Below, one piece after another: positions 2,746 to 47,625 of a DNA stretch of 64,000 bases. The DNA comes from an uncultured Acidobacteriota bacterium (GTDB taxonomy: Bacteria; Acidobacteriota; Thermoanaerobaculia; Multivoradales; SZUA-115), in NCBI GenBank assembly GCA_963805975.1, contig CAWDVR010000005.1, positions 608,001-672,000 on the forward strand. Direction: 5' to 3'. Position numbers and translations under genes: made by a program. Each line of letters begins with the position of its first letter. The stretch's first letter is position 1. The notes under the pieces were generated by a model. That model had not been told where the DNA came from, made no database searches, and saw only the letters and a program-made list of their open reading frames with translations.

Positions 2746-3814
2746 CCGGAGCGGCCTTCTTCGCGCCCCGCGGCAGCGTGCCGGCGAGGATCTGGAGGGT
2801 CGTCCCGACGCAGGCGGCGAGCGGCTTCTCGTCGGCGACTCCCCGGCCGGCGATCGCGAAGGCCGTGCCGTGGTCGACCGAGGTGCGCAGGTAGGGGAGC
2901 CCCAGGGTCCAGTTGGTGGCGAGCCCGAAAGCCGCGGTCTTGACCGCGATCAGGCCCTGGTCATGGTAGAGGGCGAGAACCCAATCGAACTCTCCTCCTG
3001 CGGCACGGGCGAAGAGCGAGTCCGGGCTCTCCGGGCCGTGGGCGTCGATGCCCAGCTCGCGCGCCGCGGTCACGGCGGGGAACACCTGCGCCCCGTCTTC
3101 GCTGCCCAGAAGCCCGCCCTCGCCGGCATGCGGGTTCAAGCCCGCGACGGCGATCTTGCCGCCGGCGTGCCGGTCGAGGCAGGCGAGCGCCGCGAGCAGG
3201 CGGGTCGGCTCGACCTGGCGGATGGCCTCGACGAGAGGCACGTGCGTCGAGAGCAGGGCGACCTGGAGGGTCGGCGCGAGAAAGGCCATCAGATAGTCGC
3301 GGCCGTAAAGCTCGAGCCCGGCGGCGGCGGCCAGGTAGTCCGTGTGGCCGGTGAACCCCGGCAGGTGGTGACGGTCGATGACCGACTTCGAGAGAGGCGC
3401 GGTGACCAGGGCGTCGGCCACTCCGGCACGCACCAGTGCCGCGGCGGCATCGAGCGCGGCGAGGGCGCCGGCGGCGTCCGCCGGGCCCGGTGCGCCGGGT
3501 ACGACGGCTCGTGGCTCGGCCACGGGATCGAAATGGGCGACGGCTTGGCGGTCGAGAGCCTCCAGATCCGCGCGCGACGGAGGGGAGCCGAAGGTCGAGA
3601 TCCGCTCCCAGCCCAGGTGAGGAAGGACGGCGGCGAGCGGTTGCAACGCGGCGCGCTCGGCGACCAGGAGCGGCCGGTAGCTCGCGGCCGGCCGGCTGGT
3701 GATGGGCCGGGGCGCGGCGAGCGCCAGCTTGGCGAGGATCTCGGGGCCGATGCCGGCGGGATCGCCCTGGCTGAGAGCGAGGATGGGGAGGCCGGGAGGA
3801 AAGCCGGGGCGCAC
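2729..3814 (-). CDS. pdxA: 4-hydroxythreonine-4-phosphate dehydrogenase
   Basis: GDPAGIGPE, GHTDY, GLNPHAGE, YHDQG and RTSVDHGTAF motifs. Confidence 0.95.
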
Positions 3815-15039: not shown

Positions 15040-16542
15040 TCAGCCCAGGGTGCGGGCCGCTTCGCCGATCAAAAGCTCGGTCTCGAAGCTCGGCCCGAAC
15101 CGGGCCAGGGCGGCGTCGAGCGGCGAGAGGTCCGAGATCCAGCGCTCCAACTCGCCGTTGTCGGCGTAGATGACGGCCACCACGTCGCCGCCACCGGAGA
15201 CCGGCAGCAGCAGCGACTGGCCGGTCGCCGGCGCGCCGAGGAGCTTTGCCAGCTTGCGCGGCAGGTGCGCGGCCTCGAAGTCCAAGGACACCGGACGGCT
15301 GGCGTCCAGGCTCGCGACGAGCGCGCTCTCCCCGCTGAGCTCGAGCTTCAGGCCGCGGGTCAGGGAGACGAGGAGCTGGCCGTCGGCGCCGGTGCCGAAA
15401 GCGCCGGCCACGGTCAGGCGCTCGCCCGCGACCAGGAACAGCACCGCACGCTCGACGAAGGGTGAGATGGCCTGCATCAGGTCGAGCGCCACGGTGGTCG
15501 AGCCGGTCACCGGATCGAGCTCGGCCCCCAGGCTCGCCACCGCCGCGCGCTGCGGCACCCGTTCGTCGCTCTGCGTTCCCCTCCGGCCAGGCAGCAGCGC
15601 CGCCAGGTTGGCCACCACTGCGGCGATCACTTCGGCGTCGGCAGGGACCACCGCCAGCGCACCGGCGAGGTAGGCGGCTGCGCTGTTGGCTCCCGGGTCG
15701 AGGACCACGATCACCGGCATCGGCCGTTGCGGGTCGAGGACGCTCTCGAGCGCCGCGGCGACCCGCGGCGCGCTCCTCAGGTCGGCCACCAGCCAGGTGT
15801 CGCGGTGCCGCAGGTCCCCATTCTGCGGGGATGCCAGGGCCGCCTGTGCACGGACCACGGTTGCGAGGTCCGGCGGAACCACCAGGGCGAGAGTCTCGAA
15901 CAATGCCTCGTCCCGCGTACGAACCGCCAGGATGAGGGGCTCCGGGAGAGGCTCGGCTCCGCCCTCTGCCAGGACCGCAGGCGCGGGCGCTTGCGAGGCG
16001 GCTTGGCCGGCCGGCTGGCGCGCGGTCTTGTGGCGGGAGGGGTCCCGGCGGGTGGCCGCGCTCGCCGTCGCCCTGGTCTCCGGGTCCTGCACCGCCCGCG
16101 GCTGGGGCGCCACCTGGGGCTCGAAGGAGAAGCGGCCGCTCTTCCAGCCCCCGAGCTCGGTCAGCGCCTGGCTCACCTGCAGGGCGATGAGGCGCTCCAC
16201 GTCGGAGCGCGCGAGCACGCCGTGCGAGACGAGGATCTCGCCCAACGGGCGCCTTCCCTGTTCCTCGGCCTGGAGGCGGGCAGCCTCCCGGACCGTGATC
16301 GGATCGCAAAGGCCCGAAGCGATGAGCAGATCGCCCAGCCGCTTGATGCCGGGAGCGCGGGCCGCGACGGGCCGGCCGCCGGCGAGGTCGATACGCGCCC
16401 GCGCCGCGCCGCGCGCCAGGCGGAGCGTGCCGTCGTGGCGGCCGGCCTCGAGGCGCCGCAGCACCTCGCTCAACGAGTGCTCCTCGAGCTTGCCGGAGAG
16501 CGGCTCGACGGGCGGAGGGTTGGGCTCGGATCCCGGCATCAC
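15040..16542 (-). CDS. DUF4388 (PatA-N-like) domain protein with degenerate receiver/GAF-like C-terminus
   Basis: LSGKLEEHSLSEVL, RLGDLLIASGL, LGEILV and WKSGRFSF motifs; C-terminal VVAVIYADN. Confidence 0.8.
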   Translation of the reverse strand: MMPGSEPNPPPVEPLSGKLEEHSLSEVLRRLEAGRHDGTLRLARGAARARIDLAGGRPVAARAPGIKRLGDLLIASGLCDPITVREAARLQAEEQGRRPLGEILVSHGVLARSDVERLIALQVSQALTELGGWKSGRFSFEPQVAPQPRAVQDPETRATASAATRRDPSRHKTARQPAGQAASQAPAPAVLAEGGAEPLPEPLILAVRTRDEALFETLALVVPPDLATVVRAQAALASPQNGDLRHRDTWLVADLRSAPRVAAALESVLDPQRPMPVIVVLDPGANSAAAYLAGALAVVPADAEVIAAVVANLAALLPGRRGTQSDERVPQRAAVASLGAELDPVTGSTTVALDLMQAISPFVERAVLFLVAGERLTVAGAFGTGADGQLLVSLTRGLKLELSGESALVASLDASRPVSLDFEAAHLPRKLAKLLGAPATGQSLLLPVSGGGDVVAVIYADNGELERWISDLSPLDAALARFGPSFETELLIGEAARTLG

Positions 16543-16562: not shown

Positions 16563-16596
16563 AAACGAAAAGCGCGGCCCTGGTGAGGGCCGCGCT
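16563..16596 (-). terminator. Rho-independent terminator of the zinc-finger/TPR gene
   Basis: AGCGCGGCCCT-N4-AGGGCCGCGCT stem followed by TTTCGTTT on the minus strand. Confidence 0.75.
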
Positions 16597-16625
16597 CGGT
16601 ACCTCCGCGGACGCTGATCGAAGGG

Positions 16626-17996
16626 TCAGGAAGCCTGCTGGTAGGCGAGCTCCGGGTTGCCCCGCGCTTCGCGCAGGTAGCGGGAGATGTCGGTCAACAG
16701 TTGCAAGGTGACGCTCTCGGCCTTGGCAGCGCGCTGGAAGACCAGCAGGGCGGCCGTGGCCTCGCGGTGCACGTCGCGCGAGCGGAAGATCGGCAGCATC
16801 TCCTCGGCCAGCTCCTTCATCTCACCGGTGCGCCCCTGCTGGGCATAGACCGCGGCGAGGTCGAGCGAAGCCAGAGCGGCGTCGTAGGCGATGCCGCGCT
16901 CCACGAACTCGTCGCGCATGCGGCCGAACACCTTCTCCGCCTCGTCGAGCTTGTTGAGGCCGCGGGCGATCTTGCCCTCGAGCCACAGAGTACGCATGTG
17001 GTCGACGCTGCCCTCGTGCTGCGCCACCAGCCGCTTGATCTCCGGCAGCATCTTGCGGGCTTCCTGGTTCTTGCCGGCCGTGGCCAGGCAGGCGGCGATG
17101 GTGTGCTTCACGCACCAGACCAGGCGCGGTTCGCGCTGCTCGTCGATCAGCCCCATGGCCTCGTTGAGCTGCTCGATTGCCGCCTGGGGCTCACCGGCCT
17201 CTTCGAGCACCGCGGCACTGTAGATCAGGGTGCGGCCCACCCAGTGGTCCTCGCCGGCCTCGCGGTAGATGGCGAGGGCCTTCTGCAGCAGGTCACTCGC
17301 TTCGTCGAAGCGGCGCTGCTCGCGGCGCAGCTCGCCCTTGAGGCTCATCGTGCGCGCCTTGAGCAGCACGTCGTCGGTGCCGTCGGCGAGGCTCGCCTCG
17401 GCAGCGGTGAAAGCTTCCTCGGCGCTGCGCAGGTCGGAGGCCACGCGGCGGGCGTTAGCGATGTAAGTCCAGGACCGCGCCTTGAGGTCGTTGACCAGGG
17501 CCGGGCCGTAGTGGCTACCCTCGAGCTGGCCGGCGACCACCAAGGCGAGCTCGGCCAGATCCTCGGCGCGGGAAGGATCGTCGATCACCGAGCGCAGGCT
17601 CTCCTCGAGCAGGAACTCGGCGAATACATAGTTCTTGAACCGCCACGTGCGCTGGATCAGCGCGCGCTGGCGGCTGACCGGGTGACGGGTGAGCTCGGTG
17701 TAGAGCTTCGGCGCCCGGGCACGGTCCCGATCGCGTGCCTCACCCCGCACCTCGAGGGTGTTCTGACCAAAAGTGAAAGCGCGGTCGTAGCTCGGGTTGT
17801 CGGCGACGTCGAGAGGCTGGAGACCCTGGAAGAGGGTGCTGAGCAGCTCGCTGCCCTCCGGCGCGAGTCGTTCGACCTCTTTGCGGCAGGCGGCGCAATT
17901 GAACAGGTGCCAGGAGACTTTCATGTTCTCCCGCCGGTTCAGCTTGCCGCGGCTGAACTTCTCCAGCATCTTTTCATCAGGGTGCGTCTTGGGCAT
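16626..17996 (-). CDS. N-terminal zinc-finger (H..HxxxCxxC, anti-sigma-like) plus TPR-repeat protein, copy 1
   Basis: HPD...HLFNCAACR; helical repeats; AAGGAG RBS 7 nt before ATG 17996; paralog of 21234..22553. Confidence 0.9.
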   Translation of the reverse strand: MPKTHPDEKMLEKFSRGKLNRRENMKVSWHLFNCAACRKEVERLAPEGSELLSTLFQGLQPLDVADNPSYDRAFTFGQNTLEVRGEARDRDRARAPKLYTELTRHPVSRQRALIQRTWRFKNYVFAEFLLEESLRSVIDDPSRAEDLAELALVVAGQLEGSHYGPALVNDLKARSWTYIANARRVASDLRSAEEAFTAAEASLADGTDDVLLKARTMSLKGELRREQRRFDEASDLLQKALAIYREAGEDHWVGRTLIYSAAVLEEAGEPQAAIEQLNEAMGLIDEQREPRLVWCVKHTIAACLATAGKNQEARKMLPEIKRLVAQHEGSVDHMRTLWLEGKIARGLNKLDEAEKVFGRMRDEFVERGIAYDAALASLDLAAVYAQQGRTGEMKELAEEMLPIFRSRDVHREATAALLVFQRAAKAESVTLQLLTDISRYLREARGNPELAYQQAS

Positions 17997-18020
17997 ATTC
18001 AAGCTCCTTGTTCGCCGGCC

Positions 18021-18302
18021 TCAGGTCCCGGGGAAGACACGCTGAGCCGCTTGGGTCACGCGGCGCCGTTGGTCAACCCAGTGCTTCCGACACTTGTGCC
18101 GGAGCGTTGCCAGCAGCCAGCCGGCAGGCTCCTCAGCACTCTCTCCTCGATAGATGAGCTCCAGAACGGTCGCTTCCAGAAGGCTGCTCGCGTCGCTGGG
18201 GGGGATCTCGTAGCGACGCAAGACCTCCTCGAGGGCGGGCCTCGAAGAGGTATAGAAGATTTCTAAAAATGCGAAATTCCTGCGATGATAGGCATACGTC
18301 AC
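18021..18302 (-). CDS. Small protein resembling ECF sigma region 2 only
   Basis: LEEVLRRYEIPPSDASSLLEATVLELIY...PAGWLLATLRHKCRKHW; GTG at 18302 lies 7 nt after TGGCAA-N17-CATAAT (possible leaderless start). Confidence 0.6.
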   Translation of the reverse strand: MTYAYHRRNFAFLEIFYTSSRPALEEVLRRYEIPPSDASSLLEATVLELIYRGESAEEPAGWLLATLRHKCRKHWVDQRRRVTQAAQRVFPGT

Positions 18303-18429
18303 GGGGCTTATTATGCACACTTCACCCCTAACTTGCCACCATGCCCAAATTCCGACACCAAGGAGGCGACGAAGAGCTCGCCGCCTAAGAAGGGGAGTCG
18401 TACCGTGAAGAACCGACGTTTCCGATAGT

Positions 18430-18765
18430 TTACGGGCTTCCCGGCAGGTTGAGGCCATCCGGGAGAGCGGAGGAACCATTGCCGCCACTACCTGTGCTGC
18501 CGCCTGTTCCGCCCCCGTTTCCACCGTTTCCGCCACTACCGGACCCACCGATCGAGCCCAACTTCTCGACATTCCGAGAGCCGAGCTCCGGCCTGCCGCC
18601 GGCGATCGAAAAGATCGAAGAGAACCAATCGAAGAGCGAATCGAGCGTCCACCCCGCGAGGTTCGACTGGCGCGCCATGGGTAGGGCGGACGCGGGTAGG
18701 CAGAGGCTGAGTACCGCAACCAAGGCCAGGGCTGTCGCGAGACGAGTGTGTCTTCTCTCTAACAC
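18430..18765 (-). CDS. Small secreted Gly-rich peptide precursor
   Basis: AAAGGAG RBS; signal peptide ending ASA; amphipathic WTLDSLFDWFSSIFS; Gly-rich tail with GSSALPDG. Confidence 0.75.
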   Translation of the reverse strand: MLERRHTRLATALALVAVLSLCLPASALPMARQSNLAGWTLDSLFDWFSSIFSIAGGRPELGSRNVEKLGSIGGSGSGGNGGNGGGTGGSTGSGGNGSSALPDGLNLPGSP

Positions 18766-18970
18766 GGTGGTAGCTCCTTTCGCACGGTCTGAGTGTTGTA
18801 TCGAAGCTGGAAGGGGCTGGCATCTGCCCCGGACCCGGCACCCTTTGCAGGCCTAGTTGCCGCAGAGGTGCGTTGAGATGACAGCGTCGAGACGCCGCGA
18901 GAAGAGTGGCAGCCCGAAGAGGGGCAGGCGGCTGTGCCGCGCGAACTACGGTCCTAGCGGAGGAAAAAAC

Positions 18971-19019
18971 TGGTGGAGCCGATCGGGATCGAACCGACGA
19001 CCTCTTGAATGCCATTCAA
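18971..19019 (-). repeat. att direct repeat: duplicated 3' 49 nt of tRNA-Ala(GGC)
   Basis: TGGTGGAGCCGATCGGGATCGAACCGACGACCTCTTGAATGCCATTCAA is identical to 47550-47598. Confidence 0.98.
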
Positions 19020-19181: not shown

Positions 19182-20413
19182 ATGCGCGGACGGATCACCA
19201 AACGGTCGGTCGATGAACTCGTTCCGAAGCAGCGGAACTCTACCTCTGGGACTCCGAACTTGCAGGCTTCGGGGTCAAGATCACTCCCGAGGGCAGGAAG
19301 GTATACGTCCTCCAGTACCGCACGAGAAACCAGGAGCGGAAGCGGCGGACTGCGCCGAAGCGGATCACAATCGGTCGCCACGGCGAGATGACGCCGGAGC
19401 AGGCGCGAACGCTCGCCTCAAGGTTCCTCCTTGAAGTGACGGCGGGCGGCGATCCACGCCAGGCCTTCCGACCGAGCGAGTCGCCCATGGTCGCCGAGCT
19501 CGCGAATCGCTTCCTCACCGAGTATCTTCCGGGCAAGAAGCGCCCGCCCCGCGCCTCGACCGTCGCCTACTACGAGATCCTCTTCCGCGTGCACGTGATT
19601 CCCGCCCTGGGTGCGAAGCGGGTTGATGCCGTCTCGACCGCGGATGTTGAGAAGCTCCACGCCCGGATGCGGGACACCCCGTACATCGCGAACCGGACAC
19701 TCTCGCTTCTTCAGCACGCCTTCGACCAGGCGGAGCGGTGGGGCTGGCGGCCGCAGCACTCGAACCCCGCGCTCCACGTCGAGCGGTACCGGGAGGACCG
19801 ACGAGGTGCGAAGAAGGAAGTCATGCTCACCTCCTCACAGATGGCGGCCCTGATCGAGGCGATCGACGAGGAGGAAGCGACCGGCGGGGTGAGCATGTGG
19901 CTGCCGCAGCGCTCCGGGTCGCCTTCTGGACGGGCTGGCGGATTGGCGAGGTGCTCGGGCTCCGGTGGACGAACGTGGACATGAGCGCGGGGCGTGGCGC
20001 AGCTCCTGCGGAACGAAGACGGCCGCGGAGGAGTACCGTCAGCTCCCGTCCGAGGCAATTGCGATCGTGAAGCAGGTTCCGAAGGTGGCCGGCTGCCCGT
20101 TCGTCTTCCCCGGCGAGGACTTGACAGACCATCTCACGACGGTGAGGAAGCCGTGGGCGACGCATCCGAGCAGCGCGCGGGCCTCGATCGTCTGGAGGGC
20201 CTGGGCGCGTTCCGCATCCACGACCTCCGGCACAACGTCGTCTCCTGGGACGTGTCGCGGGGGGTGCCGTTGGAGATCGCCGGCAAGAACGTCGGGCACC
20301 GCTCGCGGCGCTCGACCGAGGTCTATGCGCACTTCGCGCCGGACGCCCTGAAGCGTGCGGCAGACGAGCGCGCGGCGGCGATGCGGGCTGCGTTTGAGGC
20401 TGAGCGGACTTAA
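19182..20413 (+). pseudogene. int: Tyrosine integrase with N-terminal arm-binding domain, several frameshifts
   Basis: Pieces in different frames: MRGRITKRSVD, LWDSELAGFGVKI, RITIGRHGEMTPEQAR, GWRIGEVL, IHDLRH, VGH, TEVYAH; frameshifts may be sequencing errors. Confidence 0.9.
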
Positions 20414-20729: not shown

Positions 20730-21119
20730 ATGCGTCGCTTGTTGCGCTTTCTTGCTCTGACTTTGGTCGTAGTGGCAGTGGTAGCTCCAGCAGCCGCGGC
20801 TCCACGCGAGTCCGACTTGGCTCCCGCTCCGCAGTGGGTGTTGAAGCGAATCCAAGTGTTCCTCGAGGAGGTCTCATCTCGCCTGTTCTCTCCTGCGGCG
20901 AAGGATGGCGGACTCATGGACCCGAACGGTGGGAAGGCGCAAGGCGCAAATGGATCAAGAAACGCCCCCAGAGGCACCGCGAGCGTGGATGATGGCGGGC
21001 TCATGGACTCCGACGGCAGGCGCATGACCTCGCGGGGCGGATCGCAGATGGACCCCAATGGAAGAAGGACAGACGGAGCACGGCTAAACGACGGCGGGCT
21101 CATGGACCCGAACGGGTAG
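20730..21119 (+). CDS. Secreted peptide precursor with four GGLMDPNG-like repeats
   Basis: AAAGGAA RBS; signal peptide; DGGLMDPNG, DGGLMDSDG, GGSQMDPNG and terminal DGGLMDPNG-stop. Confidence 0.85.
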   Translation: MRRLLRFLALTLVVVAVVAPAAAAPRESDLAPAPQWVLKRIQVFLEEVSSRLFSPAAKDGGLMDPNGGKAQGANGSRNAPRGTASVDDGGLMDSDGRRMTSRGGSQMDPNGRRTDGARLNDGGLMDPNG

Positions 21120-21233: not shown

Positions 21234-22553
21234 ATGAGCAGGCATCTCACCTCTGCGGAGCTTGCAGGACTCTTGGAAGGCGTGGCATCGCGCGACCTCA
21301 TCGCGGAGTTTCTTGAGCATCATTTGGAGGTCTGCGAAATCTGTCGTGAGGAATACGAGCGCTTGCAGAGTGGCGACTCCGGCGAGACCTCCTGGCGGGA
21401 GGTAGTCGAGGTCGCCACGGCCCTTTCAGCAAAGCGAGCCGAACGCTTGGCGCGGCTGGAGCAGATAGCCCAGCGCGAATTCCGCGAACTCATGCGCCTG
21501 CCTTCTTCTTCCCGACGCTACAAGATCAACCGAGCCATCAACCGATTCAGGAGTCCGATCCTTGTGGATCTCCTTCTTGCCGAGAGTAAGCGGCAAGTCA
21601 CGAGCGATCCCTGGACAGCGCTCGCGCTTGCAGAGTGTGCATTCGATGGTGCCTTTAGGGTCTCGCATCGGGAGTTTGGCGAGGCATGGGCCATGACGTG
21701 CCTCGCGCGCGCTCACGCTCATCGCGGGAACGCGCTCCGAACGACGGGTGACTTCAAACAGGCAGATGACAGCCTCCTGTTGGCGCTCAAGATCTTTGAC
21801 CAGGACGGAAACAGAGACCCGCTCATCGAGGCCGAGATCCTCTCCTTCCTCGCGTCACTGCGCATGGACCAGCGTAGCTTCATCGAGGCCGAGGGGTATC
21901 TCGATATGGCGCGGGGTATCTATGAAAGGTTGAGCGAGCAGGCCCTCATCGCCCATATCCTGGTGCAGAAAAGCGTGGTCCTCTTCACCGCAGGAGAGTT
22001 TGACCGGGCGCTTGTTGTGGGCCTCGATGCTCTCGGTGCGATAGACCAGTCCACGGACCCGCGGCTCTACCTATCGGCCGAGCACAACTACACCTTCTTC
22101 CTCATGGAGGTTGGCCGCTACCGGGAGGCATGGGAGCGCCTCGAATCGCAGGCTCCTCTCTACGATGCGTTCCCGGACTCGTGGACTCAGCTTCGACGAC
22201 AGAGGCTCCAGGGCAACGTCCTCCGGGGCCTTGGTCGGCGCGATGAAGCCGAGGCAGCGCTCATCGCGGTGCGCGCCGGATTCGTCCGCGAGGGCCTAGG
22301 CTTCTATGCCGCCATTGCGGGCCTCGACCTTGCCTACCTCTATATCGAGGACAGGCGAACGGCAGAGGTCAAGAAGCTCGCCGAGGAGATGGTGCCCATC
22401 TTCATGGCCCAGGACATTCACCGCGAAGCCTCCGCAGCGCTCCTTCTATTCCAAGAGGCGGCGCGGCAGGAGACGGTCACCATCTCCATGCTCAAGGAGC
22501 TCATCGCGTACATGGGGCGGGTCAGGACAGAACCGGCGCGGAAGGTGTCGTAG
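21234..22553 (+). CDS. N-terminal zinc-finger plus TPR-repeat protein, copy 2
   Basis: HLT...HHLEVCEICR; C-terminal LDLAYLY...LAEEMVPIF...DIHREASAALLLFQ matches copy 1. Confidence 0.9.
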   Translation: MSRHLTSAELAGLLEGVASRDLIAEFLEHHLEVCEICREEYERLQSGDSGETSWREVVEVATALSAKRAERLARLEQIAQREFRELMRLPSSSRRYKINRAINRFRSPILVDLLLAESKRQVTSDPWTALALAECAFDGAFRVSHREFGEAWAMTCLARAHAHRGNALRTTGDFKQADDSLLLALKIFDQDGNRDPLIEAEILSFLASLRMDQRSFIEAEGYLDMARGIYERLSEQALIAHILVQKSVVLFTAGEFDRALVVGLDALGAIDQSTDPRLYLSAEHNYTFFLMEVGRYREAWERLESQAPLYDAFPDSWTQLRRQRLQGNVLRGLGRRDEAEAALIAVRAGFVREGLGFYAAIAGLDLAYLYIEDRRTAEVKKLAEEMVPIFMAQDIHREASAALLLFQEAARQETVTISMLKELIAYMGRVRTEPARKVS

Positions 22554-24795: not shown

Positions 24796-24842
24796 GAACG
24801 AGGAAAACCCCGGCCGGTGAAGGCGCAGGGCTTCTCTCGTTC
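24796..24842. repeat. Hairpin, third copy of the GCCCCGGCCGGTGAAGGC..GGGCTTCTCT element
   Basis: Related to the hairpins at 28461-28498 and 30536-30572. Confidence 0.75.
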
Positions 24843-28455: not shown

Positions 28456-28669
28456 CACCAGAGAGAGCCCCGGCCGGTAACGGCACGGGGCTTCTCTCTA
28501 CGGAGCACAGCGACTCGTGGAACGCCACGAGGCCACGTGTCTCCGAAGGATGATCCGCGATCCAGGTCAAGAGCAGGGTTAGGGTGTCAGGTAAGCGCGC
28601 AGGAACGTCTGCCTGCTTGATCAGGCAGGTGTCGAAAGGCTTCGAGGTGTGCTCTGTTGAAGGGCACAA
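28456..28669 (-). repeat. Imperfect copy of the serine recombinase 3' end plus terminator
   Basis: Aligns to 30532-30755; encodes PDTLTLLLTWIADHPSETRGLVAFHESL. Confidence 0.92.
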
Positions 28670-30755: not shown

Positions 30756-32181
30756 CAAGCATCATTGGCCCTCTCAAGGAGCAGCACAAAGGGAAACGAC
30801 GGTTCAACGGCAACGTGGTTTGGCGAGACAGTACGGTTCGAGGTCAGACAATCGAGGATGCGGCGCTTTTCGCCGACATTCGCCGTTCTGTAGGTCAACG
30901 AAGCCGTGCTTGCCAGTTCGAGGATTCTCTCGGCGTCGTCGACTCGCGTCCTCGCAGGATCGTCAAGCGAGGCGATCTCGTCCTCAACACGCCGCTTCTC
31001 CTTCAAGAGCCGTCGTCGCTTCTCTTCATAGGTCTCCTTGTCCACGCTTTGGTCTAGGTAGGCGTCGGTCAATCGGTCGAGCCGCGCTGCGACCTGGCCG
31101 GCTGGCAGGCAAAGAGCGTTCGGCTTCGTTCGGCTTCCCCTCGTGCCTGCTCGCCTCGCTCTCGAAGCGCTGCGGCGAAGATCGCCTTGGCTTCCTCTCG
31201 GAACTGGAGCTGCGCCAAGACGCCCTGCACGGCTTCGTCGAGCTTCTCCTCTCGGATGCCCGTCATCGGGCAGCCTTTGGTGTGGCAGCGATAGTCGACG
31301 TGGCCCTTCTGGCGTTCACCGATGAGTGTGGTGCGGCACTCGGCACACCGGAAGAGCTTGCGGAAGGCGAAGTCGTGCTTGACGACCCGCGGCACGTTCC
31401 GACCGTGAAGGATCTCCTGTACGCGATCGAAGAGAGCTGTGCCGATCAGAGGCTCGTGGATTCCAGGATAGGTCTCCTTGGTCTTCTTGATCCGGATGAG
31501 GCCGGTGTAGAAGGGGTTCTGGAGCATGATCCAGACGCCGGTCTGCGAGATGGGCGTTCCTCGCATGTTGGCGAGCCCAAGCTCGCGCATCTTCGCGGTC
31601 AAGGTCGGAACGCTGTACTGCCGTGTGGCGTATAGCTCAAAGGCCGTCCGCACCAGAGGCGCCCGTATCGGGTCGATCGCCTTGGGCTTGCCGCCTCCCA
31701 TGTTGAGGTATCCGACGGGCGCGCCGAAGGGATAGATGCCCTGCTTGAGGCGTCCATAGAGGCCCTTCTTGGTTTCCTCGCGGAGGTTGCGGATGTAGTC
31801 AGCGGCGATGACCGCCTGAATGTCGGCGGTGAGCCGGCCGCCGCGCGACGTGAGATCGAGATTGTCCGAGACGAAGTGGACGTTGACGCCAGCATCGATG
31901 AGCTCCCCGAGATCGGCCCAATCGCGGAGGTTCCGCGCAGAGCGGTCGATCTTGTGGATGACGACGCCCTCGACTTTTCGCGCGCGAAGAAGCTTCACCA
32001 TCCTGGTGAAGACGGGCCGCCCGCGCTTGGCTGCGGTCTCGCGCTCCTCGAACCACTCGCTGATCTCTATCCCGCGTGCCTGCGCGTACCGCGCAATGGC
32101 GTCCTGCTGGACTTCGAGCGAGACACCCTGTTCACCCTGCTTTGCCGTGGATACGCGGATGTATCCGAAGCATAGGGTCAT
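30575..32181 (-). CDS. Large serine recombinase (resolvase + recombinase + Zn-ribbon), frameshifted near 31100
   Basis: YIRVST catalytic Ser, KIDRSARN, APVGY, NPFYTG, HEPLI, RCAEC..YRC and coiled coil continuing in ORF 30575..31072. Confidence 0.93.

Positions 32182-47549: not shown

Positions 47550-47625
<76 letters not shown>

Follow-up and report, generated by a model that had tools for sequence, protein, structure and literature searches.

The window analysed here is a 64,000-nt stretch of contig CAWDVR010000005.1 from an uncultured Acidobacteriota bacterium, and our subject is a module of three genes that lies just outside a genomic island. The three co-oriented open reading frames (ORFs) that the initial annotation had reported were present on the minus strand: one for a predicted secreted pro-peptide (18430-18765), one for a protein made of sigma factor region 2 alone (sigma2-only; 18021-18302), and one for a protein with an N-terminal zinc-binding anti-sigma (ZAS) domain followed by tetratricopeptide repeats (TPRs; 16626-17996). 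We assigned the following features to the module.

16626..17996, minus strand: ZAS-TPR protein, 456 aa (Pfam TPR_12, AlphaFold2 model, fold matches, orthologues 58-76% identical)
17862..17996, minus strand: ZAS domain, about residues 1-45, H5-x24-H30-x3-C34-x2-C37 (profile of 40 N-termini)
18021..18302, minus strand: sigma-region-2-only protein, 93 aa (Sigma70_r2 match, three-helix model, motif counts)
18310..18339, minus strand: sigma70-type promoter-like site GTGGCA-18 nt-CATAAT (conserved among orthologous loci)
18364..18386, minus strand: GC-rich hairpin between the peptide and sigma2-only genes, without a T run (RNA fold)
18430..18765, minus strand: gene for a predicted secreted pro-peptide, 111 aa, with Shine-Dalgarno sequence GAAAGGAG (positional orthologue in 7/7 loci)
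18685..18765, minus strand: predicted Sec-type signal peptide, residues 1-27 (basic, hydrophobic, A-S-A; sequence pattern)
18607..18651, minus strand: Trp-containing amphipathic helix, residues 39-53 (hydrophobic moment 0.57)
18454..18480, minus strand: candidate core NGSSALPDG, residues 96-104, register x-G-x4-P-x-G (invariant G97, P102 and G104)
16570..16597, minus strand: intrinsic-terminator-like hairpin 3' of the TPR gene (12-pair stem plus T tail)

The most likely start of the TPR gene is the ATG at 17996, which is preceded by AAGGAG and gives the 456-aa product, and that of the sigma2-only gene is the GTG at 18302, 7 nt 3' of the -10 box. Three terminator-like sites were counted in the region, a number not above that in shuffled sequence. 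No NCBIfam family name was obtained above cut-off for any of the three proteins, and in the Atlas they fall only in unnamed or TPR clusters of Acidobacteriota.

The module is conserved as a unit. TPR orthologues with 58-76% identity were detected in five of the seven other genomes of the family and on a metagenome contig, and the order peptide, sigma2-only, TPR was kept at all seven loci (the window; genomes G002, G003, G004, G006 and G007; contig L037), with contig L036, nearly identical to G004, not counted. The initial annotation had named failure of the small ORF to be conserved beside TPR orthologues as the result that would speak against it, and the ORF was retained at every one of these loci; a tblastn search with the peptide missed all orthologues, which were identified by position. 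The module also belongs to a much larger family. The genome that carries the window (G000; 5.36 Mb, 96% complete) has 14 loci of the TPR family, one of them frame-split, and at 11 of these a co-oriented ORF with signal peptide, amphipathic helix and G-x4-P-x-[GD] core lies upstream; no upstream peptide was found at C5:45378 or C3:404932, and the one at C1:60988 is doubtful. Related genomes gave up to 51 family matches each, with at least one in 29 of the 31 genomes searched (weak generic TPR matches included), and those relatives that have names belong to the Thermoanaerobaculia or elsewhere in the Acidobacteriota. A genome marked as unpublished was set aside, and no conclusion draws on it. 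From 76 non-orthologous loci we used the 72 with at least 900 nt upstream for a peptide count, and a signal-peptide ORF with core was found upstream at 33 of these, versus 1 of 72 on the antisense control; a count of 48/72 for any 'signal-like ORF' was discarded because it included false MetK fragments. Many family pro-peptides are shorter than 100 aa, and direct adjacency of peptide and TPR genes holds for most paralogues. Core types (CPxG, DPHG and IDPNG groups) sort by TPR clade, though kin share labels, and covariation between TPR columns and cores was not used, being confounded by kinship. Beside family TPRs of this genome at C3:214482 and C1:963915 we observed ORFs, either divergent or located downstream, whose sequence suggests a helix-turn-helix (for example ELKVEHVLGILAAL and ELKVRDVFAVLLQI); they could be further outputs.

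The 456-aa protein matches Pfam TPR_12 (E 4.6e-18) and, weakly, zf-HC2: its single ZAS sequence scores 19.3 bits against a Pfam cut-off of 22.2, and zf-HC2 was found in 20 of 40 family members. Residues H5, H30, C34 and C37 match the ZAS motif, H-x(23-26)-H-x3-C-x2-C. A profile of 40 family N-termini searched against PDB sequences had as its best matches two anti-sigma factors, DdvA (E 7.5e-5) and ChrR (1.5e-4), followed by 3hug chain B (0.0023) and RsiW (0.32), and the ChrR-related model TIGR02451 gave a partial match to the ZAS-TPR protein (E 2.2e-5). The HHCC zinc motif is intact in six of the seven orthologues. In the AlphaFold2 model (pLDDT 88.4, pTM 0.76) a ZAS bundle with helices at residues 8-15, 21-33 and 35-44 leads through a long helix into a TPR superhelix of about 390 aa. 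Foldseek ranked LGN/Pins first by E-value, and RapJ-CSF (4gyo) had the top query TM-score, 0.56, among the matches listed. VIA-align gave Z scores of 25.1 for APPBP2 (root mean square deviation 4.2 over 328 aligned residues), 21.9 for LGN, 21.3 for an anaphase-promoting complex (APC) subunit and 20.7 for Pins, next to 20.6 for Rap105 (5.5 over 307) and 20.0 for NprR; the RRNPP structures as a whole scored 16-21, equalled or exceeded by APPBP2, LGN and APC subunits. Since these eukaryotic TPR proteins rank above or level with RRNPP receptors, the model indicates a peptide-binding type of TPR fold, and descent from RRNPP is not implied. The window protein retains the polar residues N181, R184, Q227, R335, W338, R411 and E412 conserved across the family, which we infer to line the TPR groove. 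The protein is predicted to be a cytoplasmic peptide receptor and anti-sigma factor in one.

For the middle ORF the Pfam match is to Sigma70_r2 (E 9.3e-5; at 22.6 bits a little short of the cut-off of 24), and the frame ends without region 4. At all seven loci it encodes 89-100 aa of region 2 alone, without a receiver domain, and purifying selection on it is strong (pN 0.015, pS 0.241 between G006 and G002). Its three-helix model best matches region 2 of sigmaE (4lup; probability 0.98, query TM-score 0.59, E 0.33), all Foldseek matches being weak, above E 0.001; a profile of the sigma2-only proteins found nothing meaningful among PDB sequences, and in a search of 1.8 billion proteins the top representatives were short (66-132 aa). 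The protein derives from a local extracytoplasmic function (ECF) sigma factor family with four full-length members in the same genome, three after metK (C1:1249506-1251374) and one at C1:1331276-1331950. Among the 78 of 80 full-length ECF relatives readable at the region 2.2 motif D-A-E-D-x-x-Q, the D was present in 72 and the Q in 73, and neither occurred in any of nine sigma2-only proteins, which have a DASSLLE-like sequence at this position. This acidic motif is required for contact of region 2 with the beta' clamp of core polymerase, according to reviews (PMC8999054 and PMC8103513), so its loss is as expected of a sigma mimic, and the simplest reading from the sequences is that the sigma2-only protein binds the ZAS domain in place of a sigma factor. 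ECFs of the same parent family occur at 28 of the 76 ZAS-TPR family loci, a linkage that gives the ZAS domain a likely target, and an acidobacterial, ZAS-regulated ECF group, ECF270, has been described (PMC8999054). The zinc finger and the sigma2-only protein, which the initial annotation had named without proposing a mechanism from them, together point to an anti-sigma output.

The three ECF genes after metK in this genome stand without a ZAS-TPR gene, whereas many relatives have one between the first and second sigma genes; here control of these ECFs may come in trans from paralogues dispersed over the genome. We also detected three further sigma2-only genes in the genome (C4:146601-146852, C5:45124-45414 and C5:412395-412640). 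The one at C5:45124 overlaps a family TPR that lacks the ZAS domain, has no peptide gene, and is flanked by genes that, from their sequences, we take to be ruvA-like and ruvB-like.

The small ORF is preceded by a Shine-Dalgarno sequence and encodes, after a signal-peptide pattern, an amphipathic helix with a Trp residue and a tail rich in Gly. The signal-peptide pattern is present in all orthologues by a crude hydrophobicity filter, and a lipoprotein reading of its LSLC was rejected because the Cys is absent in homologues. Orthologous pro-peptides have 101-114 aa, and the helix, with a moment of 0.35-0.86 in 31 of 34 precursors, is shared across the family. Precursors carry up to four copies of the core, which lies at or near the C-terminus, with 0-2 residues after the last core in 27 of 34, a layout of several cores and short tails that agrees with processing into short peptides. 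The DPxG core of the family, to which the segment at 18454-18480 belongs by register, resembles the DPxG motif at the self-cleavage site of RHS toxins. The likeness may reflect no more than a common beta-turn, though family receptors might conceivably recognise RHS-derived ends as well.

The core had been part of the initial annotation, and here the claim divides: the segment does sit in the family register G-x4-P-x-G, and it is degenerate. The window core, without the usual hydrophobic-Asp pair, scores 2.3 bits on a position weight matrix built from 45 non-orthologous cores, 44 of which score 14-26; because the core's regular expression was composed with the local peptides already in view and prescribes G, P and G, the matrix is informative mainly at other positions. 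Against the hidden Markov model (HMM) of family precursors, too, the window precursor scores lowest (E 0.026). Four of six orthologous cores stand above shuffled sequence (G004, SGSSLDPNG, p 0.0002; G007, 0.001; L037, 0.001; G002, 0.005). Close homologues of the peptide, at 93, 62 and 54% identity, all keep the core (ALPDG, ALPDG and LVPDG) plus a PG[SN]P tail, and the peptide gene has an omega of 0.24 between G006 and G002, which argues that the degenerate core is not a product of random decay.

For the second peptide-TPR pair, that of the island, and for the surroundings, the features are these.

18971..19019, minus strand: attachment site (att) copy, the last 49 nt of tRNA-Ala(GGC), at the island end (repeat of the tRNA 3' end)
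47550..47625, minus strand: tRNA-Ala(GGC), at the opposite island end (ARAGORN)
20730..21119, plus strand: island pro-peptide with canonical multi-copy DPNG cores, for comparison (shuffle p 0.0006)
21234..22553, plus strand: island ZAS-TPR paralogue of a different clade, for comparison, its start taken as the Met preceding the ZAS motif (alignment, tree, GC3 0.748)
15040..16542, minus strand: DUF4388 gene, a downstream synteny marker outside the claimed system (Pfam E 7.3e-20)

The window and island TPR proteins are colinear, as the initial annotation had it, with both of the motifs it quoted present and 147/421 identities (35%, E 8e-62). Its description of a second paralogous module gives way to that of one copy among 14: in a tree of 53 TPR proteins (a quick IQ-TREE maximum-likelihood search with SH-aLRT support only, G007 left out) the window protein falls in its orthologue clade (SH-aLRT 100) next to C4:550595, and the island protein groups elsewhere, together with C2:840602 and C3:404932. 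This makes them old paralogues, which became neighbours through insertion of the island, and the two pairs do carry different cores, as had been proposed. The common plan of the two peptides holds for signal peptide, helix and core and not for alignable sequence, BLAST finding no similarity between them (best E 15). A helix end 'FS', put forward as a shared motif, was rejected as chance: FS follows none of 31 family helices, and orthologues lack it.

Promoter-like sequence divides the module. A TGGCA-18 nt-[CG]ATAAT site lies 7-9 nt before the sigma2-only start; AAGTGTGSATAAT is exact in the window, G002, G003, G004 and G006, present as a variant in G007 and not kept in L037. The genome has only three copies of GTGCATAAT, one of them in front of another sigma2-only gene; a third sigma2-only gene has GATAAT 7 nt 5' of its ATG, and two of the three further genes have a [CG]ATAAT box near the start. 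Folded stems follow the peptide gene in orthologues too, strongest in G003. The promoter-like site and the hairpin after the peptide gene suggest a separate, leaderless sigma2-TPR mRNA, and a single three-gene transcript is doubtful because the conserved promoter lies between the peptide and sigma2-only genes. Additionally, in one metatranscriptome run (X1), contigs of a near relative (93-99% identity) cover the peptide gene (18388-18828), much of the TPR gene and the sigma2-TPR junction, and a 16.3-kb control stretch is covered in patches only. This run was found with the window stretch itself, its contigs are blind to strand and level, and DNA carry-over is possible, so it was not counted as proof of expression; its gap at 18140-18387 is uninformative, and runs X2-X4 gave short pieces only.

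With moderate confidence, about evenly poised between right and wrong, we propose that this conserved Thermoanaerobaculia module is a peptide-gated anti-sigma switch with an RRNPP-like receptor and a sigma2-only mimic. The best reading of peptide and TPR protein, judged by sequence, is that they form a cognate signal/receptor pair. The proposal starts from the anatomy, conservation, purifying selection, ZAS motif, TPR model, ECF-family linkage and DAED..Q loss set out above, and its later steps are suggestions. The small protein would be exported by Sec and cleaved either beside the core or close to a conserved Lys that follows the amphipathic helix. A trimmed peptide ending in PxG would then re-enter the cytoplasm from the periplasm through an Opp/Dpp-type transporter; the genome encodes two SBP_bac_5 proteins, one beside an OppC_N match. 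Its core would bind in the TPR groove and change the grip of the ZAS domain on ECF sigmas encoded elsewhere, namely the three after metK (C1:1.25 Mb) and the one at C1:1.33 Mb. The sigma2-only protein, made with the TPR protein from its own leaderless promoter, would bind the ZAS domain as a polymerase-incompetent mimic that adjusts the threshold or prevents cross-talk between the 14 paralogues, and the window and island pairs would read different cores.

Several observations weigh against this proposal. The cores of the window (p 0.12), G006 (0.14) and G003 (0.07) are not significant alone. The window TPR protein has S in place of K260 (29 of 34 in the family) and T in place of N299 (31 of 34), which could mark a new specificity or a lost one. 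The fold matches are generic, APPBP2, LGN, the APC subunit and Pins scoring at or above Rap105 and NprR at 11-17% identity, and a sequence search places Rap105 only at rank 60 (E 2.4e-4). Another gene and a promoter separate the peptide gene from the TPR gene, and at the ECF-bearing loci a peptide lies directly upstream of the TPR in 1 of 28, many having one downstream. The sigma2-only proteins retain nearby acidic residues (LLEA/LLEE), and these glutamates could partly replace the lost charge. The ZAS domain of DdvA binds sigma4 about 80 times tighter than sigma2 (PMC11506125), a preference under which a sigma2-only decoy would compete poorly. Finally, cell-to-cell use requires that the peptide cross two membranes; a cell-to-cell signal and an envelope self-check both stand as readings of it.

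The strongest competitor, which we consider unlikely though deserving of attention, treats the small protein as an output: a product that is secreted or stays in the periplasm and is encoded beside its regulator, with the TPR sensing another input or only scaffolding the anti-sigma domain. The separation of the peptide gene by its own hairpin and a promoter, the generic TPR fold and the three of 14 TPRs in this genome without a clear upstream peptide would all suit such an arrangement, and the amphipathic helix, kept family-wide, could be the working part. A product of this kind does not explain why only a short core is conserved, in up to four repeats per precursor and at or near the C-terminus, nor why core type tracks TPR clade and pairing is one-to-one at 11 of 14 loci.

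Lower in our estimation, and quite improbable, is a peptide-receptor family in which the window copy has become decoupled, its core and groove having drifted and its TPR protein acting mainly as a fixed modulator with the sigma2-only partner. The poor scores of the window core and precursor against the matrix and HMM could be read in this way, as could the loss of K260 and N299 in the window TPR and of N181 and R184 from those of G002 and G006, the degenerate zinc site (THSS) in G007, and a core that differs in every orthologue while the TPRs remain 58-76% identical. Selection on the core argues otherwise: G97, P102 and G104 are invariant in 10 aligned orthologous peptides, the ALPDG or LVPDG and the PG[SN]P tail persist down to 54% identity with the omega given above, and in a near relative, where among the 27 differences listed 15 codons are silent and 10 are not, codons G97, D103 and G104 are among the silent ones. 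Cores without Asp also occur in four other peptides of the same genome.

It is very doubtful that the peptide and TPR act as proposed while the sigma2-only protein is half of a split sigma factor of the SigO-RsoA type or a repressor that binds DNA through region 2.3-2.4. Split sigmas exist (PMC8103513), DdvS sigma2 by itself can bind promoter DNA in gel-shift assays (PMC11506125), and the region 2.4 side of the sigma2-only protein (R68, C71, R72, W75, V76, R79) is invariant in nine sequences, yet the core-binding motif is lost, no region-4-only protein of the family was found in the 96% complete genome, where region-4 matches all lie in full-length sigmas, and neither a region-4 match in the ZAS-TPR protein nor an adjoining region-4 gene was seen.

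As for origin, the island att, which repeats the 3' end of tRNA-Ala(GGC) perfectly over 49 nt (18971-19019 = 47550-47598), lies 206 nt from the peptide start, in agreement with the roughly 200 bp of the initial annotation. An intact tRNA-Ala stands directly upstream of the module in G002, G003, G004 and G006, an att copy lies upstream in the window and also, at a distance of 2.9 kb, in G007, and L037 has no tRNA; the DUF4388 gene lies downstream in all six loci that extend that far (the window, G002, G003, G004, G007 and L037). The pre-island state is thus the module directly behind the tRNA-Ala gene. The initial annotation had supposed that the module may itself be an older insertion at tRNA-Ala, and we found no positive evidence for this. 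That it is a remnant of an older mobile element is very unlikely: its place behind a tRNA-Ala 3' end (gene or att copy) at six of seven loci, an integration hot spot marked by the window island, a related integrase remnant in G007 and another family TPR beyond the tRNA in G002 and G006, and a low third-position GC content (GC3) of the peptide and sigma2-only genes (0.70) are outweighed by a TPR GC3 of 0.893, which falls inside the host range (0.76-0.95) and exceeds that of island genes (0.63-0.81; island TPR 0.748), by the lack of a second att remnant in the window and of an integrase attached to the module, by orthologues in five of seven family genomes with the same downstream gene, and by L037, where module and DUF4388 persist though the tRNA is missing. 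A small chance is left for an ancient insertion, now fully ameliorated; the reading that fits best is a module inherited vertically next to a hot spot for integration.

In G006 and G002 another family TPR, 43% identical to that of the island, lies across the tRNA-Ala (L032 5124-6335 and L033 5874-7139, both minus strand), from which it appears that the site collects such modules repeatedly. The tyrosine integrase of the island (19183-20413, plus strand) is split over frames (ORFs 19388-19984, 19738-20070 and 19994-20413; Pfam), and the G007 remnant beside its att copy (L035, about 2760-3270, minus strand) changes frame in about the same region, which could reflect shared decay, assembly error or a programmed shift. 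The island also contains an XisF/Ccr-like serine recombinase (31069-32181, minus strand; E 1.7e-29, below cut-off), which suggests a second, nested element; repeats of 40 nt at 24798, 28458 and 30533 and of 101 nt (88%) at 28507/30583 lie near it.

We found no description of a ZAS-TPR/peptide family in the literature covered, subscription journals and the supplementary ECF tables of PMC7826278 being outside that scope; the ECF family could be listed in those tables. Intracellular receptors for peptide pheromones are described for Gram-positive Bacillota and their mobile elements (PMC10075063). If our proposal of a peptide-gated switch is true, the reach of peptide signalling would widen to a soil phylum with two membranes, the Acidobacteriota, through a large family of paralogous peptide/TPR loci with an anti-sigma output; the peptide would be a new input to ECF sigma control, and many orthogonal peptide-sigma switches would exist. 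The window locus contributes, in addition, a conserved sigma2-only protein that has clearly lost its polymerase-binding motif. Because the parts are small and soluble and the cores differ by nature, the idea can be tested in vitro although the host is uncultured. A wider reading, possible though on the whole rather improbable, is a cell-to-cell peptide network across Thermoanaerobaculia with alternative sigma factors as its common end point, in which dozens of secreted PxG peptides would each gate a soluble ZAS-TPR anti-sigma factor, the sigma2 mimic of the present locus would make its receptor a partner switch under peptide control, and islands would import extra channels.

Among known systems, RRNPP pairs (Rap-Phr, NprR-NprX, PlcR-PapR, AimR-AimP) likewise set a pro-peptide with signal sequence near a cytoplasmic TPR protein of 250-500 aa, with many paralogous pairs per genome and a C-terminal core, and the fold here resembles RapJ-CSF, Rap105, NprR, AimR and PlcR at 8-16% identity, with no preference over eukaryotic TPRs. 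The present module differs in its two-membrane host, in an N-terminal zinc anti-sigma domain instead of a helix-turn-helix or the three-helix bundle of Rap, in a 111-aa pro-peptide with amphipathic helix and Gly linker, and in the sigma2-only gene between peptide and receptor. At 456 aa with TPRs the receptor falls within the RRNPP range; the pro-peptide narrowly exceeds the 10-100 aa of the strict RRNPP_detector rule (PMC10075063), and the intervening gene breaks adjacency at all seven orthologous loci. Because peptide length and adjacency depart from two of the five RRNPP criteria in that source, and the fold does not tell RRNPP descent from a generic TPR origin, we do not file the module as RRNPP, although it is proposed to work in a similar way.

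SigO-RsoA (YvrI-YvrHa) of Bacillus subtilis likewise includes a stand-alone sigma2 protein (PMC8103513), whereas here we found no region-4-only partner and the core-binding motif is lost. ChrR-sigmaE of Rhodobacter sphaeroides likewise fuses a soluble N-terminal ZAS domain to a C-terminal sensor, which is a cupin for singlet oxygen there and a TPR superhelix without an adjacent full-length sigma here. In DdvA-DdvS of Myxococcus xanthus (PMC11506125) a ZAS domain and TPR sensor likewise control an ECF sigma; DdvA is a membrane-spanning ZAS-TM-TPR-CHAT protein with a periplasmic TPR-CHAT part, a CHCC zinc site and sigma release thought to be proteolytic, while the protein described here has an HHCC site, a linked predicted secreted peptide and no transmembrane segment or CHAT domain that we could see. 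PhyR-NepR-EcfG of Alphaproteobacteria shares a sigma-like domain, degenerate in its polymerase-binding regions, that titrates an anti-sigma factor, as proposed here (PMC8999054, PMC8103513); PhyR differs in having sigma2- and sigma4-like parts, a receiver domain and a phosphorylation switch, and its target NepR is not a ZAS protein. The network reading, if true, would join RRNPP-style pheromone sensing to PhyR-style sigma mimicry in a two-membrane bacterium.

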